In this document: in pieces, positions 9,390 through 16,414 of the stretch
How the letters are laid out: each line of letters opens with the position of its first letter
Position numbering within the stretch: the first letter of the stretch is position 1
Source: a virus
Lineage: Duplodnaviria; Heunggongvirae; Uroviricota; Caudoviricetes
IMG/VR virus record: IMGVR_UViG_648276648_000002
Strand: one strand, 5' to 3'
DNA length: 30,298 nt
Program-made: the position numbers and the translations under genes
The notes under the pieces: generated by a model
Databases searched by the model: none
What the model was told of the DNA's origin: nothing
Seen by the model: the letters and a program-made list of their open reading frames with translations, nothing else

Positions 9390-10199
9390 ATGAATAATCT
9401 GATGGTCATTGATGGTATTGAAGTTCGTCGTGATGCTTATGGGCGTTACAGCCTGAACGATCTGCATCGCGCAGCAGTAGCATCTGGTGCAAATGCCAGA
9501 ACCAAGGAGCCAGGAAAGTTTCTTTCCAGCCAACAAACTGTTGAGCTTGTTCATGAATTAACCAACACCCAGAATTTGGGTGTTGACCCGGTGAGCGTGA
9601 TTCATGGGGGAAATGAACGGGGAACGTATGTCTGTAAGGAACTGGTGTATGCCTATGCAATGTGGATCAGCCCGTCATTCCATCTGAAGGTGATCCGTAC
9701 TTTCGATATGGTAACCAGCGCGCCGGAAAAGTTATCCGGACAGGCTGCTGACAAGATGCAGGCTGGCGTGATTCTGCTGGACTTTATGCGCCGGGAGTTA
9801 AATCTGTCTAACTCATCTGTGCTTGGGGCCTGTCAGAAACTCCAGGAGGCTGTTGGCTTACCGAATCTGGCACCGCGCTATGCCATTGATGCACCTGCTG
9901 ACGCGCCTGATGGCTCAAGCCGCCCGACGCTGTCGCTGAGTGCACTGCTGAAGCAGTATGGTATCCGCCTGACGGCTAATCAGGCATATCACCAGATGGC
10001 GAAGCTGGGGATCGTTGAACAACGCGAACGATACAGCCGTACCGCGATTAACAACATCAAAAAATTCTGGTCGCTGACAGCGAAAGGCTGCATGTTCGGC
10101 AAGAACATCACCAGTCCCGCAAATCCGCGCGAGACGCAGCCGCATTTCTTCGAATCCCGATTCCCTGAGCTGTTAAAGCTGCTCGATACCGTTCATTGA
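9390..10199 (+). CDS. KilA-N domain protein (antirepressor-like)
   Basis: 269 aa; N-terminal VIDGIEVRRDAYGRYSLNDLHRAA... is KilA-N-like; GAGGAG ribosome-binding site. Confidence 0.75.
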   Translation: MNNLMVIDGIEVRRDAYGRYSLNDLHRAAVASGANARTKEPGKFLSSQQTVELVHELTNTQNLGVDPVSVIHGGNERGTYVCKELVYAYAMWISPSFHLKVIRTFDMVTSAPEKLSGQAADKMQAGVILLDFMRRELNLSNSSVLGACQKLQEAVGLPNLAPRYAIDAPADAPDGSSRPTLSLSALLKQYGIRLTANQAYHQMAKLGIVEQRERYSRTAINNIKKFWSLTAKGCMFGKNITSPANPRETQPHFFESRFPELLKLLDTVH

Positions 10200-10200
10200 G

Positions 10201-11196
10201 GTGACCGTGAGAGCACTACTGACCCCTGAAATTGCCCCGCGTATGGGGATCGTATTGTTCAGGCCAGGTTCAGAGCTGATGCCCCTGTTTATGCAGGGGC
10301 GTGTCCTGCTGGAGCCTGAGCCGGAACGTTATTCATCTTTTGCCAGTGGTGCCGTTCCGGCTGCATCACAACCGCTGGCGGATGATCCTGCCGTTCGGGC
10401 CGTGTTCCGCAATGAGGCAGTGATCCGTCGTGCTGGTGGCGTGGAATGTCTTGAAAGCTGGTTACTTCGTGAAAAAGGCTGCCAGTGGCCTCATTCCGAC
10501 TGGCACAGCGAGAACATGACCACAATGCGACACGCGCCGGGCGCAATCCGTCTGTGCTGGCACTGCGATAACCAACTGCGCGATCAGTTCACGGAACGGC
10601 TGGAATCAATGGCAACGGATAACTGTGCCCGCTGGGTGTTGTCTGTTGTGCGTCGGGATCTCGGTTTTGATGACAGTCACGTTGTGACAATGCCGGAACT
10701 GTGCTGGTGGCTGATTCGTAATGATCTGGCGGATGCCTTACCGGAAAGTGCAGCCCGTAAGGCACTGAGATTACCGAAGCCTGTTGTGCCGTCTGTCACC
10801 CGGGAAAGTGACCTGGTGCCTTCGGTTCCTGCCACCAGCATCATCCAGGATAAAGCGAAAAAGGTGTTGGCGCTGAAAGTGGATCCGGAGTCGCCGGACT
10901 CTTTTATGTTACGCCCAAAACGTCGCCGCTGGGTTAATGAAAAGTACACGCGATGGGTTAAGACGCAGCCGTGCGCATGTTGTGGAAAACCTGCTGATGA
11001 TCCCCACCACCTGATAGGCCACGGTCAGGGTGGAATGGGGACAAAAGCGCATGACCTCTTTGTGTTGCCTTTGTGCAGAAAGCATCACGACGAGCTGCAT
11101 GCGGATAATGTGGCATTCGAAGAGAAGTATGGCTCCCAGCTGGAGCTGATATTTCGTTTTATCGATCGTGCGCTGGCGATTGGTGTGCTGGCCTGA
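10201..11196 (+). CDS. DUF968 (YdfU-like) protein with C-terminal Cys/His HNH-like motif
   Basis: 331 aa; C-terminal [43 protein letters not shown]. Confidence 0.7.
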
Positions 11197-11213
11197 TTTT
11201 GTGGAGAAAGTTG

Positions 11214-11597
11214 ATGCGTGATATTCAGATGGTTCTTGAGCGTTGGGGAGCGTGGGCGGCTAATAATCATGAAGATGTGACCTGGTCGTCCATTGCCGCC
11301 GGTTTTAAGGGATTAATTCCTTCAAAAGTAAAATCTCGCCCGCAATGTTGTGACGATGACGCTATGATCATTTGCGGGTGCATGGCCCGTCTGAAAAAGA
11401 ACAACAGCGATTTGCACGATTTATTAGTAGATTATTATGTAGTCGGTATGACATTCATGTCACTGGCAGGTAAGCATCGCTGCTCTGATGGTTATATCGG
11501 GAAAAGGTTACAGAAGGCTGAGGGCATAATTGAAGGGATGTTAATGGCATTAGATATCCGGTTAGAGATGGATATCGTTGTTAATAACTCTAATTAA
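11214..11597 (+). CDS. Q: Late antiterminator Q (phage 82/21-type)
   Basis: ATG at 11214 preceded by GGAGA within ORF 11199-11597; position immediately before the late/lysis region. Confidence 0.75.
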
Positions 11598-11613
11598 TAT
11601 GCCAATTGTTTAC

Positions 11614-11650
11614 TAAAAATTATTAAAAATGGGGCGTTGAGACGCCCCCA
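11614..11650 (-). terminator. Rho-independent terminator for the porin gene (minus strand)
   Basis: Minus-strand RNA: GGGGGCGUCUCAACGCCCC hairpin followed by AUUUUUAAUAAUUUUU. Confidence 0.7.
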
Positions 11651-11786
11651 AAAATAAAGGGTAATATATAACAGAAGGTTTATATAGTTAGAAGCAAGGT
11701 TGTGCTTCTAAAGGAAGTGGCTTGAGGGAGCCACTTATATGTTGGGGAGGCAACGCCTCCCGCAACATATCTTTTTCGTAATCAGA

Positions 11787-12884
11787 TTAGAACTGGTAAA
11801 CCAGACCTACAGCAACGATGTCATCAGTGCTTACACCGAGTGCTTTAGTGAAGTCATTTTTGTCAAGCAGGTTGATTTTGTAATCAACGAAAGTAGACAT
11901 ATTTTTGTTAAAGTAATAGGTTGCACCTACATCAACATATTTGACTAAGTCCTGATCGCCCCATACTCCAAGATCCTTACCTTTAGATTGCAGGTAAGCA
12001 ACGGACGGACGCAGACCGAAATCGAACTGATATTGTGCAACAGCTTCGAAGTTTTGGGCTTTATTAGCAACGAAGTGATCAGCAAATACAGTCATATTCT
12101 GGGTTTCAGAATAGGTAGTGGCCAGGTAAATGTTGTTAGCGTCATATTTCAGACCTGCGGCCCAAACTTCTGCATTTTTACCGGAAGCAAATACTTCAGG
12201 AAGAACTTTCCCTGCATTAACTTGAGTGTCGGTACGATCAGATTTCGCATAAGTTGCACCGATACCGAATCCTTCGTATTCATAGGTAGCAGAGAAACCG
12301 AAGCCATCACCGTTACCTTCAGTGTAGTTATCGAAATCGCTACGATCGTTTTTGCCTTGGTACTGAGCAGCAAAGTTCAGACCATCAACCAGACCAAAGA
12401 AGTCGTTGTTACGATAGGTTGCAACACCAGTTGCACGTTGAGTCATGAACACGTCGGTTTGAGTCCAAGTGTCACCACCGAATTCTGGCAGGACGTCAGT
12501 CCACGCACCGATGTCGTATGCTACACCGTAGTTACGGCCGTAATCGATGGAGCCGTAGTCACCGAATTTCAGGCCAGCGAAGGCAAGACGGGTTTTATCT
12601 TTGGAGGAACCTTGAGATTCAGCGCGGTTGCCTTTGAATTCATATTCCCACTGACCGAAACCAGTCAGTTGATCGTTGATTTGGGTTTCACCTTTGAAGC
12701 CAAGACGGGCATAAGTAGTATCACCATCATCTGCATCATTAGAGGAGAAGTAGTGCTTAGCATTAACTTTCCCGTACAGATCCAGCTTGTTACTGTCTTT
12801 ATTATAAATTTCAGCTGCCTGAGCAGACATCGCCATCAGTACTGATGCAGCTACAGCAGAAATTGCCACTGTTAATTTTTTCAT
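11787..12884 (-). CDS. nmpC: Outer-membrane general porin, OmpC/OmpF family (phage Lc/NmpC-type lysogenic-conversion porin); intact
   Basis: Signal peptide [23 protein letters not shown], then [16 protein letters not shown]..., ending in the C-terminal Phe typical of porins; start taken at the internal Met of ORF 11787-12944. Confidence 0.9.
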
Positions 12885-13253
12885 CGTGAGCCCTTTTTTT
12901 GAACTATTATTAAAAAATGATGTCACTGCGCGATAAATATTCATCTAATCAATGTGATTATTTCAAGATGTAAGTTTTGGTTTCTCGTTTGATTTGTGAA
13001 GTAGATCTCTATTTTTATCTGAACTTTTTTCTATCGAATCCTATTCATGGCTCTTGGCTGAATAAAAATAAATCTATTAGCCAATTTATATTAACGGCTG
13101 TTATTTATAAGCGCTCTATAATTTGAAGGTTCAATTTAAACCAGCTAAAAATAACACTGGAAATTATTTGTTGGTTATTTGTTGAGATTTGCTTATGTAT
13201 TTGTAGTGGTGTTTTCAATACTCGGTAGCATTCTCGCAAATATCATTTAGTGG

Positions 13254-13281
13254 TTTACGTACGTAAAAAATTGGTTATGCT
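13254..13281 (+). promoter_or_regulatory. Candidate late promoter (PR'-like) upstream of the lysis genes
   Basis: TTTACG - 16 bp - TATGCT; followed about 30 nt later by a terminator hairpin, as in lambdoid PR'-tR' arrangements. Confidence 0.3.
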
Positions 13282-13311
13282 GTTAAGAGTGGTTACTTCG
13301 TCACACAGCTT

Positions 13312-13336
13312 AAACCCGCCGTCGAGCGGGTTTTTC
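13312..13336 (+). terminator. Rho-independent terminator (tR'-like) between the candidate late promoter and the holin gene
   Basis: ACCCGC-CGTCGA-GCGGGT hairpin followed by TTTT, about 120 nt before the holin ATG. Confidence 0.6.
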
Positions 13337-13456
13337 CATTTTTTGAGTCTCGATATTAGCTGATAATCCAATACCTGAGTTATTCACTGACTCCGAGTCT
13401 GTTACGTTTCGTAGTATTCCCTCAATTTACACCCGCTTTGTCTGCGAGGTGGGGTT

Positions 13457-13672
13457 ATGAAATCCATGGATAAGTTAACAACGGGTGTCGCCTATGGCAC
13501 CTCAGCAGGTAGTGCCGGGTACTGGTTTTTACAGCTGCTAGATAAAGTCACGCCCTCACAGTGGGCGGCAATTGGAGTGCTGGGTAGCCTGGTATTTGGC
13601 CTGCTGACGTACCTGACAAACCTTTATTTCAAGATTAAAGAAGATAAGCGTAAGGCTGCGAGAGGTGAATAA
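13457..13672 (+). CDS. S: Holin (phage 21 S21-type pinholin)
   Basis: 71 aa, [55 protein letters not shown]... Confidence 0.9.
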
Positions 13673-14169
13673 TGTCGCCATCATTACGCAAGGCTGTAGC
13701 AGCTGCTATTGGTGGTGGGGCTGTTGCCATAGCGTCTGTGCTCATCACTGGTCCGAGTGGTGACGATGGTCTGGAAGGTGTCAGCTACATACCATATAAA
13801 GATATCGTTGGCGTATGGACTGTATGTCACGGGCATACAGGAAAAGACATCATTCCCGGTAAAACGTATACCGAAGCAGAATGCAAAGCCCTCCTGAATA
13901 AAGACCTTGCCACTGTCGCCAGACAAATTAACCCGTACATCAAAGTCGATATACCGGAAACAACGCGCGGCGCTCTTTACTCGTTCGTCTACAACGTGGG
14001 TGCTGGCAATTTCAGAATATCGACGCTTCTTCGCAAAATAAACCAGGGTGATATCAAAGGCGCATGTGATCAGCTACGTCGCTGGACATATGCTGGCGGT
14101 AAGCAATGGAAAGGTCTCATGACTCGTCGTGAGATTGAGCGTGAAATCTGTTTGTGGGGTCAGCAATGA
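13672..14169 (+). CDS. R: SAR endolysin (phage 21 R-type lysozyme)
   Basis: 165 aa; N-terminal signal-anchor-release helix ([18 protein letters not shown]); start overlaps the holin stop (TAATG). Confidence 0.9.
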
Positions 14170-14627
14170 ACAGAGTAACCGCGATTATCTCCGCTCTGGT
14201 TATCTGCATCATCGTCTGCCTGTCATGGGCTGTTAATCATTACCGTGATAACGCCATTACCTACAAAGCCCAGCGCGACAAAAATGCCAGAGAACTGAAG
14301 CTGGCGAACGCGGCAATTACTGACATGCAGATGCGCCAGCGTGATGTTGCTGCACTGGATGAAAAATACACGAAGGAGTTAGCTAATGCGAAAGCTGAAA
14401 ATGATGCTCTGCGTGATGATGTTGCCGCTGGTCGTCGTCGGTTGCACATCAAAGCAGTCTGTCAGTCAGTGCGTGAAGCCACCACCGCCTCCGGCGTGGA
14501 TAATGCAGCCTCCCCCCGACTGGCAGACACCGCTGAACGGGATTATTTCACCCTCAGAGAGAGGCTGATCACTATGCAAAAACAACTGGAAGGAACCCAG
14601 AAGTATATTAATGAGCAGTGCAGATAG
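14166..14627 (+). CDS. Rz: Spanin, inner-membrane subunit Rz
   Basis: Internal ATG of ORF 14154-14627; N-terminal transmembrane helix followed by coiled-coil. Confidence 0.9.
14386..14568 (+). CDS. Rz1: Spanin, outer-membrane lipoprotein Rz1, embedded in Rz in the +1 frame
   Basis: Lipobox LVVVGC, Pro-rich [15 protein letters not shown]; entirely inside Rz. Confidence 0.85.
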
Positions 14628-14658: not shown

Positions 14659-14952
14659 TTATTGTGAGCAATACACACGCGCTTCCAGCGGAGTATAAAT
14701 GCCTAAAGTAATAAAACCGAGCAATCCATTTACGAATGTTTGCTGGGTTTCTGTTTTAACAACATTTTCTGCGCCGCCACAAATTTTGGCTGCATCAACA
14801 GTTTTCTCCTGTCCAATTCCCGAAACGAAGAAGTGATGGGTGATGGTTTCCTTTGGTGTTACTGCTGTCGGTTTGTTTCCAACAGTAAACGTCTGTTGAG
14901 CACATCCTGTAATAAGCATTGCCAGAGCGGCAGAAAACAACATTTTTTTCAT
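14659..14952 (-). CDS. bor: Bor lipoprotein (serum-resistance protein)
   Basis: MKKMLFSAALAMLITGCAQQTFTV... with lipobox; start at the internal Met of ORF 14659-15000. Confidence 0.9.
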   Translation of the reverse strand: MKKMLFSAALAMLITGCAQQTFTVGNKPTAVTPKETITHHFFVSGIGQEKTVDAAKICGGAENVVKTETQQTFVNGLLGFITLGIYTPLEARVYCSQ

Positions 14953-15311
14953 CTTATTATCCTGCATTGTTAAAAACGGCAGAATCCTATGTGACAACAA
15001 TTAAACGATAGTTAAATGGATTGATGAAAATTAAAACTATATAGGTGGATGCTCAGCCTATTGGAGGAGGGGGGCACTCAGAATCCTGTGGAATGAAATA
15101 AACCGCTCTTTCTGTCCATTACCCTTTTAGCTGCGCTGTATCGTCGCCGTATTCCCGCATTAACCATGACCGTAGCCCGACGGGGAATTCCTTCTGCGTG
15201 AGTGTGCGGGAATAATCAAAAACGATGCACACCGGGTTTTACTGTGCTGACAGACGCAGGGTTACCCTCATAGTCGCTTTTCCGGTGCGATGGTGGAAGA
15301 AACCGGGATGT

Positions 15312-15506
15312 TTATTCATCATCACTTTGGATTGATGTACATGCTCTCTTTTCTGACGTTAGTCTCCGACGGCAGGCTTCAATGACCCAGGCTGAGAAAT
15401 TCCCAGACCCTTTTTGCTCAAGAGCGATGTTAATTTGTTCAATCATTTGGTTAGGAAAGCGGATGTTGCGGGTTGTTGTTCTGCGGGTTCTGTTCTTAGT
15501 TGACAT
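15312..15506 (-). CDS. YlcI-like small protein (64 aa); ribbon-helix-helix-like
   Basis: MSTKNRTRRTTTRNIRFPNQMIEQINIALEQKGSGNFSAWVIEACRRRL; position next to cos/terminase as for recalled DLP12 ylcI. Confidence 0.7.
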   Translation of the reverse strand: MSTKNRTRRTTTRNIRFPNQMIEQINIALEQKGSGNFSAWVIEACRRRLTSEKRACTSIQSDDE

Positions 15507-15649
15507 GAGGTTGCCCCGTATTCAGTGTCGCTGATTTGTATTGTCTGAAGTTGTTTTTACGTTAAGTTGATGCAGATCAATTAATACGATACCTGCGTCA
15601 TAATTGATTATTTGACGTGGTTTGATGGCGTAGATGCACGTTGTGACAT

Positions 15650-15894
15650 GTAGATGATAATTATTATCATTTTGCGGGTCCTTTCCGGCGATCCGACAGG
15701 TTACGGGGCGGCGACCTCGCGGGTTTTTGCTATTTATGAAAATTTTCCGGTTTAAGGTGTTTCCGTTCTTCTTCGTCGTAACTTAATGTTTTTATTTAAA
15801 ATAACCCCTGAAAAGAAAGGAAACGACAGGTGCTGAAAACGAACTTTTGGGCCTTTGTCGTTTCCTTTCTCTGTTTTTGGCCGTGGAATGAACA
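15650..15894 (+). promoter_or_regulatory. cos: cos region (cosQ/cosN/cosB) with inverted Nu1-binding R elements
   Basis: Lambda-like GGGCGGCGACCT at 15706-15717; inverted repeats GAAAGGAAACGACAGG / CCTTTGTCGTTTCCTTTC upstream of Nu1. Confidence 0.85.
15706..15717 (+). other. cosN: cosN 12-nt cohesive-end sequence
   Basis: GGGCGGCGACCT, 189 nt upstream of the Nu1 ATG. Confidence 0.85.
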
Positions 15895-16414
15895 ATGGAA
15901 GTCAACAAAAAGCAGCTGGCTGACATTTTCGGTGCGAGTATCCGTACCATTCAGAACTGGCAGGAACAGGGAATGCCCGTTCTGCGAGGCGGTGGCAAGG
16001 GTAATGAGGTGCTTTATGACTCTGCCGCCGTCATAAAATGGTATGCCGAAAGGGATGCTGAAATTGAGAACGAAAAGCTGCGCCGGGAGGTTGAAGAACT
16101 GCGGCAGGCCAGCGAGGCAGATCTCCAGCTAGGGACTATTGAGTACGAACGCCATCGACTTACGCGTGCGCAGGCCGACGCACAGGAACTGAAGAATGCC
16201 AGAGACTCCGCTGAAGTGGTGGAAACCGCATTCTGTACTTTCGTATTGTCGCGGATCGCAGGTGAAATTGCCAGTATTCTCGACGGGCTCCCCCTGTCGG
16301 TGCAGCGGCGTTTTCCGGAACTGGAAAACCGACATGTTGATTTCCTGAAACGGGATATCATCAAAGCCATGAACAAAGCAGCCGCGCTGGATGAACTGAT
16401 ACCGGGGTTGCTGA

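Follow-up and report, generated by a model that had tools for sequence, protein, structure and literature searches.

The best described relatives of the locus analyzed here are the porin genes lc of phage PA-2 and nmpC of DLP12 (qsr′), a prophage remnant in the chromosome of Escherichia coli K-12. Lc is one of the major outer-membrane proteins of PA-2 lysogens (Schnaitman 1975, cited in PMC8065619), whose published phenotype, according to PMC8065619 and PMC12197685, is the replacement of host porins by the phage porin. In both DLP12 and PA-2, the transcript of the phage porin gene is described as carrying a 167-nt RNA, IpeX (statements in PMC12197685, PMC10690425 and PMC5069750), which is cited as lowering host OmpC and OmpF (PMC12197685). 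The name nmpC denotes an ompD-like gene of E. coli, and nmpC mRNA is a target of RybB in this species (PMC3333887).

The stretch of DNA analyzed in this study (the window; 30,298 nt) comprises a complete lambdoid genome, with early genes, repressor/cro, replication genes, a nin-like region, Q, the porin gene, the lysis genes, bor, and terminase, head and tail genes. Its closest chromosomal relatives match it at about 97% over 25 kb. One related prophage was examined, that of H96 (FDAARGOS_1059), and it lies beside tRNA-Arg (argU) and fimZ, i.e. at the annotated locus of DLP12 in K-12. The porin gene is located on the opposite strand between the Q antiterminator and an S21-type lysis cassette, as is typical of the NmpC/Lc cassettes of lambdoid phages. 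We consider it very probable that this gene is an intact NmpC/Lc allele carried by a self-contained reverse-strand moron of a DLP12/PA-2-type lambdoid prophage, with Q on one side of it and the late promoter pR′ on the other. Features of the region are summarized in Table 1.

Table 1. Features distinguished in and around the porin cassette (positions are those of the window).
Feature	Position	Strand	Remarks
Q antiterminator, quuD type	11214-11597	plus	127 aa; Phage_antitermQ, E = 6e-54; 99.2% nucleotide identity to K-12 quuD
Porin intrinsic terminator	11621-11648	minus	GGGGCGTCTCAACGCCCC then ATTTTTAATA; 7-bp GC-rich stem (11631-11648), 4-nt loop
Structured porin 3′UTR, IpeX region of the literature	11622-11786	minus	~165 nt; three strong stem-loops and the terminator
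Porin coding sequence	11787-12884	minus	365 aa; ATG start, TAA stop; mature protein 11790-12815, stop codon 11787-11789
Unoccupied IS5 target TTAG	11845-11848		Site where K-12 nmpC is broken after codon 346
Porin signal peptide	12816-12884	minus	23 aa, before AE; equals sig_peptide of PA-2 lc in J02580
Putative RybB target site CAGUGGC	12865-12871	minus	Codons 5-7; perfect complement of the RybB 5′ seed
AT-rich upstream and 5′UTR region of the porin	12885-13250	minus	29.8% GC versus 52.3% in the whole window; holds the putative promoter
Putative CRP-binding site	12992-13012	minus	misc_binding of J02580; 21/21 bases identical; 108-128 nt upstream of the ATG
Late promoter pR′ (inferred)	13254-13281	plus	-35 TTTACG (13254-13259), 16-nt spacer, -10 TATGCT (13276-13281)
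pR′ leader and terminator tR′	13284-13345	plus	Leader AAGAGTGGTTACTTCGTCACACAG; stem 13312-13333 and T tract; from a terminator scan
Holin, S21/EssD type	13457-13672	plus	P21-type dual start MKSM; Phage_holin_2_1, E = 2e-35; first lysis gene
Lysozyme	13672-14169		
Rz	14154-14627		
Rz1	14386-14568		
bor	from 14659	minus	

The porin precursor carries a cleavable N-terminal signal peptide of the Sec type, which ends in A-x-A and is followed by AEIYNK. The N-terminus of the mature protein (AEIYNKD) aligns with residue 1 of solved OmpC chains, and its C-terminus (...VGLVYQF) ends in the Phe residue that serves as a β-barrel assembly signal. The loop-3 constriction motif PEFGG(D) is kept, and the aligned basic Arg/Lys positions of OmpF and OmpC are present; based on the OmpF structure, we take the latter to be pore-lining residues. 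The start codon at 12884 is preceded, 6 nt upstream, by an AAGGG Shine-Dalgarno sequence and agrees with the annotated start of PA-2 lc. Since both of these favour 12884, a longer product initiated at the in-frame ATG at 12944 (385 aa) is unlikely.

In K-12, nmpC is split by IS5 after codon 346, with the target sequence TTAG on both sides of the element. After in silico removal of IS5 and one copy of the TTAG duplication, the K-12 gene differs from the coding sequence of the window at 2 of 1098 nt. Both differences are synonymous, so the encoded protein is 100% identical to NmpC of DLP12 (b0553). In contrast to the K-12 gene, the window copy is unbroken and contains the TTAG sequence once. The protein also shares 361 of 365 residues (98.9%) with Lc of PA-2, the four substitutions being R99H, Q149G, A151T and V154F (window residue first, PA-2 residue last). 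The 365-aa alignments with Lc and with IS5-excised NmpC contain no gap, stop or frameshift, and the match to the excised K-12 gene, together with the single TTAG, leaves no room for a hidden frameshift or insertion.

These results bear out the preliminary description of this DNA, in which a complete and uninterrupted porin gene with a signal peptide and a C-terminal Phe was noted on the opposite strand. An overlooked internal frameshift, for which that description had allowed, does not occur in either alignment. The arrangement of PA-2 lc and DLP12 nmpC, as well as the inactivation of the K-12 copy by an insertion sequence, had also been named there, and both agree with the identities given above and with the gene order given below.

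Similarity to the two reference systems extends beyond the coding sequence. The segment between Q and the porin stop codon (11598-11786) shows no differences from either PA-2 or K-12 DLP12. In DLP12 the 3′UTR with its terminator is identical, the region upstream of the gene is 99.1% identical, and the neighbouring genes are those of the window (quuD, essD, rrrD, rzpD/rzoD, borD, ylcI and nohD). Unlike in DLP12, ybcV and ybcW are absent from the bor-ylcI interval of the window, whose prophage is of full length, whereas DLP12 is a remnant. In PA-2 (J02580), the signal peptide, both annotated CRP-like sites and the position relative to the lysis genes are the same as in the window. The lc coding sequence differs at 22 nt, all but one of which fall within a patch (12425-12597) that includes the four amino acid substitutions, and the porin-S spacer is 96.3% identical (21 substitutions and 17 gap columns, with a 16-nt indel).

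The gene order Q-porin-S is common to J02580 (PA-2), OL657227 (434B) and the DLP12 region of NC_000913. The 1.86-kb block extending from the end of Q to the start of S shows 99.6% identity to that of 434B, 99.4% to that of mEp332 and 96.9% to that of PA-2 (J02580). The 434B copy of the block carries IS5, annotated as “IS5 insertion after codon 346”. According to the same annotation, the block is a region of 434 nonhomology with the left crossover in the ylcG homolog, and the holin gene encodes antiholin S71 and holin S68.

The porin is covered end to end by the Pfam family Porin_1 (PF00267), with profile positions 1-337 of 337 aligned to residues 29-365 (E = 4.7e-157; 523 bits, cut-off 23.7). 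The same family contains OmpC, OmpF, PhoE and OmpN, as well as OmpD of Salmonella. OmpC, OmpF and OmpN share with the window porin a signal peptide, the PEFGG loop-3 motif and the C-terminal YQF; the window porin differs from them as a phage-borne paralogue with indels in the surface loops L4 to L8. Among proteins of solved structure it is closest to OmpC and OmpK36 (E about 1e-137), which align over the full mature chain, and the 66.5% identity to solved OmpC suggests a trimeric 16-strand β-barrel. Several phage records label this porin OmpC or OmpD. On sequence grounds, the right name for the gene is NmpC/Lc, and nothing in the sequence speaks against this identification.

The interval between the porin stop codon and the terminator is strongly structured. 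Its predicted fold has a minimum free energy of -63.1 kcal/mol (z = -8.6), and none of 200 shuffled sequences was as stable. The last hairpin of this fold is the terminator, which is kept in all compared phages with changes confined to the loop; its stem falls inside the span 11614-11650, for which a strong terminator of the gene's own had been predicted earlier. The primary IpeX paper, by Castillo-Keller in 2006, reportedly placed ipeX in the untranslated stretch that runs from the nmpC stop codon to the terminator, and reportedly found that OmpC is not inhibited in PA-2 lysogens unless the lc 3′UTR is present. In the window this interval has the PA-2 and DLP12 sequence without any change, and its length of ~165 nt fits the reported 167 nt. 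It is best read as the IpeX region and not as spacer, the exact boundaries of IpeX being drawn from secondary citations.

A scan of the whole window against Rfam at gathering thresholds matched no family, so IpeX gained no support from a curated model, and no ipeX feature is listed in the annotation of NC_000913. In an alignment of eight 3′UTR sequences there were few differing positions, many of them in loops. With so little variation across phages, a covariation test of the stems has no power.

In most lambdoid phages pR′ abuts Q. In the window, the sequence resembling a late promoter is found on the far side of the porin gene. Compared hexamer for hexamer, it corresponds to the “putative late promoter” of VT2-Sakai (TTTACG-16-TATGCT versus TTTACG-16-TATCAT). 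For the aligned bases, the VT2-Sakai annotation names a putative late promoter, which overlaps the end of Q, a Q-utilisation site and a terminator. About 280 Stx-phage records contain a match to the segment 13253-13335, with an identity of roughly 77-78%, and among the annotated matches listed it is located at Q or immediately behind it. PPyecE_EH1910, which has a related Q and no porin, carries this leader and terminator 38 nt after the Q stop codon. The leader 12-mer AAGAGTGGTTAC was found in all nine porin-carrying loci (9/9) and in both porin-less loci (L014 and L016), while the Q-porin spacer always occurs together with the porin (36/36 phage records).

The simplest reading of this pattern is that a porin cassette (about 11598-13250) separates Q from pR′ as an insertion, does not belong to the late operon and is transcribed in the direction away from pR′. 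Being upstream of pR′ and on the opposite strand, the porin gene would be independent of late transcription. The position between Q and the holin gene, proposed in the preliminary description, therefore holds and can be refined to a position between Q and pR′ by homology to the late regions of Stx phages and PPyecE. The implicit assumption that the porin lies within the late transcription unit does not stand, since the predicted pR′ is situated beyond the upstream region of the porin, beside the holin gene S.

The start of Q was set at 11214, which is the start of K-12 quuD (the mechanically delimited open reading frame begins with TTG at 11199). Placement of pR′ by comparison with phage 21 was dropped because the window Q and Q21, the structure of which is known, are no more than distant relatives (E = 2.5e-8). 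In the PA-2 record (1986), the bases equivalent to 13288-13308 are labelled as a second CRP site. This site coincides with the conserved pR′ leader and may have been misassigned.

A long AT-rich region upstream of the porin gene had been noticed earlier, and the GC content of 12885-13250 agrees with that observation (Table 1). A scan of the minus strand of this segment for consensus sigma-70 sequences found no porin promoter. The upstream CRP site of the cassette, on which the reported catabolite-sensitive expression of Lc is based, is present by sequence, and this first of the two PA-2 sites appears well placed for a porin promoter. For the putative RybB target within codons 5-7, the predicted duplex has an energy of -13.9 kcal/mol; 24 of 500 shuffled sequences performed as well, which makes this weak evidence. 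The preliminary description had further suggested that an expressed phage porin can replace host porins. The suggestion agrees with the phenotype published for PA-2 lysogens (cited in PMC8065619 and PMC12197685), whose known mechanism also involves IpeX; the role of this RNA was not mentioned in that description.

Three other explanations of the locus were weighed. According to one of them, the gene is a chromosomal host porin, i.e. an orthologue of ompC, ompD or ompN, which merely lies beside phage genes. The OmpC and OmpD labels in phage records are in line with this, as is the score against the NCBIfam “porin OmpC” subfamily model (529.8, cut-off 484), but the scores against the equivalog models remain below their cut-offs (PhoE, 502 versus 599; OmpF, 474 versus 583), and identity over the whole mature length to the K-12 porins is only 66.5% for OmpC (b2215), 62.4% for OmpF and 68.2% for OmpN. 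Moreover, the gene is enclosed in a complete lambdoid genome, with Q on one side and the lysis cassette on the other, and the Q-porin-S block is packaged in 36 sequenced phages. A host origin of this kind can be practically dismissed. Another explanation concerns the late promoter, which would directly follow Q, as it does in most lambdoid phages; in that case late transcripts would cover the entire porin gene in antisense, and a plus-strand hairpin (11737-11770) followed by CTTTTTCG would represent tR′. The spacer does contain a TAATAT hexamer (11662-11667) and, further on, this hairpin with its T run, and it is perfectly conserved. However, a candidate promoter at this site would need a 19-nt spacer, and the homology to promoters, leaders and terminators of the 933W/VT2-Sakai type lies at 13254-13335, not between Q and the porin. 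In a porin-less phage, this leader and terminator come immediately after Q, and the Q-porin spacer has been found solely with the porin, as expected for a part of the porin transcript. In addition, published reporters of the DLP12 lysis cassette take the nmpC-essD interval as the regulatory region, their forward primer being 12812-12831. We regard a pR′ adjacent to Q as improbable. For the reverse primer of these reporters there is no match in the window within 2 mismatches, and the amplicon is at odds with the stated span of -121/+650; the start of the lysis promoter can therefore not be derived from them.

The remaining explanation accepts the identity and position of the gene and holds that it is intact but silent, i.e. 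“quiescent” owing to H-NS silencing through the AT-rich upstream region, with no phenotype of the lysogen under ordinary conditions. A GC content of 29.8% would favour such silencing, the consensus scan revealed no promoter, and nmpC is called quiescent in E. coli B in the title of Prilipov et al. 1998 (cited in PMC3333887). Against this, related copies are expressed in lysogens. In LF82 lysogenic for the Perceval prophage, expression of nmpC exceeds the local background 10-fold (PMC9928086), and the matches carrying this porin module include Perceval (OV696612). In CFT073, RNA and protein of the two nmpC copies both rise strongly at 37 °C (PMC12890032), and Lc is a major outer-membrane protein of PA-2 lysogens, as cited from Schnaitman 1975 in PMC8065619. 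The coding sequence, signal peptide, CRP site and 3′UTR of the window copy are all intact, which is consistent with function but is no proof of it. On balance a silent gene seems unlikely, though less so than the two former explanations, and an intact NmpC/Lc moron located between Q and pR′ is the reading followed below.

Matches to the porin block were found in 3727 of 5426 complete E. coli genomes, with query coverage of at least 80% in 2465 of them, and the block is present in 36 phage records. Among the E. coli matches listed (25), all are in a single piece and annotated “porin”. An NmpC/Lc porin cassette with an IpeX 3′UTR is already known and, being common in E. coli, ordinary. As intact copies are common, the absence of an insertion sequence is normal outside K-12 laboratory strains.

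No other part of the Q-to-S block diverges across phages as much as the porin coding sequence. Its nucleotide identity is 85.5-88.5% in four of the five other phages compared (97.3% in the fifth, Turner), while Q, the 3′UTR, the spacer and S of those four phages show 92.5-99.5% identity. Amino acid changes and indels are clustered in the surface loops L4-L8, where OmpC, OmpF and OmpN also have indels. Such a pattern of variation is expected for a surface-exposed receptor and antigen.

Other lambdoid morons located near Q or the lysis genes (bor, lom and stx; LpxR in 434; Blc in Lambda_ev087) are likewise self-contained, with their own promoter and terminator. Similarly to the porin gene, they are set between functional modules, and they are expressed from the prophage, as the porin would be; in the window, bor follows the lysis genes on the minus strand. 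The stx genes are Q-dependent and lie downstream of pR′, in contrast to the window porin, which is encoded upstream of pR′ on the opposite strand.

Judging from the literature on these systems, the lysogen would transcribe the cassette from its own promoter within the AT-rich upstream region, in a CRP-dependent and temperature-responsive manner. The product would be exported and would assemble as a trimeric 16-strand general diffusion pore, and the 3′UTR of its transcript (IpeX) would lower OmpC and OmpF post-transcriptionally. Since IpeX lowers the two host porins, the phage porin would partly replace them, changing phage-receptor and permeability properties of the cell. With IpeX in its 3′UTR, the cassette would combine a porin that takes the place of the host porins with the means to remove them. 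Late transcription would not cross the porin gene, because pR′ is placed on the far side of the cassette; only read-through from pR past Q would probably run antisense into it during lytic growth.

A broader reading can be proposed tentatively, and we consider it more doubtful than not. It holds jointly that the gap between Q and pR′ is a recurrent docking site for reverse-strand genes of outer-membrane proteins, that the porin and IpeX form a two-part device, that antisense read-through from pR shuts the porin off at induction, and that the second “CRP site” of PA-2 is the pR′ leader/Q-utilisation segment. Examples named for such a docking site are the porin of the window and, possibly, the Blc lipocalin of Lambda_ev087 and LpxR of 434. 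If true, this reading would be a modest refinement of the wiring of a known cassette and would leave the identity of the gene unchanged.

The practical value of the analysis lies in annotation: the gene can be named NmpC/Lc, its 3′UTR can be added as IpeX, and pR′/tR′ can be placed at 13254-13345. The effects of the porin switch have been described for PA-2 and DLP12 since the 1970s-2000s, and in this respect the locus has little discovery value. Lysogens with an intact nmpC/lc gene can show a different major porin and reduced OmpC and OmpF, and such a switch may affect susceptibility to OmpC- and OmpF-dependent phages and colicins, permeability to beta-lactams, heat tolerance and surface antigenicity.

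The predicted late promoter pR′, with its leader and terminator tR′, lies approximately 1.65 kb downstream of Q, immediately ahead of the holin gene (coordinates of this and the other features are summarized in the table below). In phage VT2-Sakai, the homologous segment is annotated as late promoter, qut and terminator and abuts Q; its counterpart also abuts Q in PPyecE_EH1910, a phage without a porin gene. Abutment in both of these phages argues that the whole porin cassette is an insertion separating Q from pR′.

The 1986 GenBank record of the phage PA-2 locus contains a second “CRP binding site” (L001 1730-1750), which corresponds to 13288-13308 of the window and thus falls on the conserved pR′ leader, AGTGGTTACTTCGTCACACAG. 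The same leader is found 3′ of Q in Stx phages, and the annotated site could represent an element for Q utilisation or pausing instead of a CRP site.

The Q-to-S block, i.e. from Q to the holin gene, was compared between the window and five other phages. In four of these, the porin coding sequence (11787-12884) was its most divergent segment (85.5-88.5% nucleotide identity), while the flanks share 92.5-99.5% identity with the window. The changes among the compared phages, including a length difference of five codons, are concentrated in predicted surface loops L4-L8. The window differs from PA-2 at 22 positions of this gene; these are grouped around 12425-12597, a pattern resembling a recombination patch.

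The nmpC gene is a reported target of the host sRNA RybB (PMC3333887). A perfect seed match is present in the porin gene of the window; it is only marginally above shuffled controls (24/500). Two long ORFs antisense to this gene are most likely artefacts of porin codon usage.

Features of the window and of two other lambdoid phages (reverse strand, −)
Feature	Position	Strand	Remarks
KilA-N domain gene	9390-10199		intact
DUF968/HNH-like gene	10201-11196		next after KilA-N gene, directly upstream of Q
Antisense ORF, 69 aa	11739-11948	+	“ORF1” of the PA-2 record; overlaps porin gene
Antisense ORF, 285 aa	11988-12845	+	overlaps porin gene
Candidate RybB pairing site	12865-12871	−	porin codons 5-7; perfect 7-nt complement to RybB 5′ seed
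pR′ (inferred), leader, tR′	13254-13345		homology to annotated late-promoter regions
Lysis cassette	13457-14627		phage 21 type
Rz1	14386-14568		embedded within Rz gene
YlcI-like gene	15312-15506	−	
LpxR lipid A deacylase gene	592-1551 (L002, phage 434B)	−	LpxR of 434
Blc lipocalin gene	2050-2574 (L017, Lambda_ev087)	−	

In the lysis cassette, the pinholin has a dual start (MKSM...), and the N-terminus of the lysozyme, whose counterpart in 434B is annotated as a SAR endolysin, resembles a signal-anchor-release segment. Further downstream (14659-15900), bor is followed directly by the YlcI-like gene and then by a nohD-like terminase gene, whereas both K-12 DLP12 and strain FDAARGOS_1059 carry ybcV/ybcW between bor and ylcI. 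Upstream of Q, the KilA-N gene is intact, but in the closest chromosomal relative its reading frame is interrupted by a stop codon. Further upstream, that relative carries an annotated PerC-family regulator and an N6-adenine methyltransferase.

Different envelope genes, both on the reverse strand, directly follow Q or a Q remnant in other lambdoid phages, i.e. blc in Lambda_ev087 and lpxR in 434. This suggests that the post-Q position may be a recurrent site of outer-membrane-modifying cargo.
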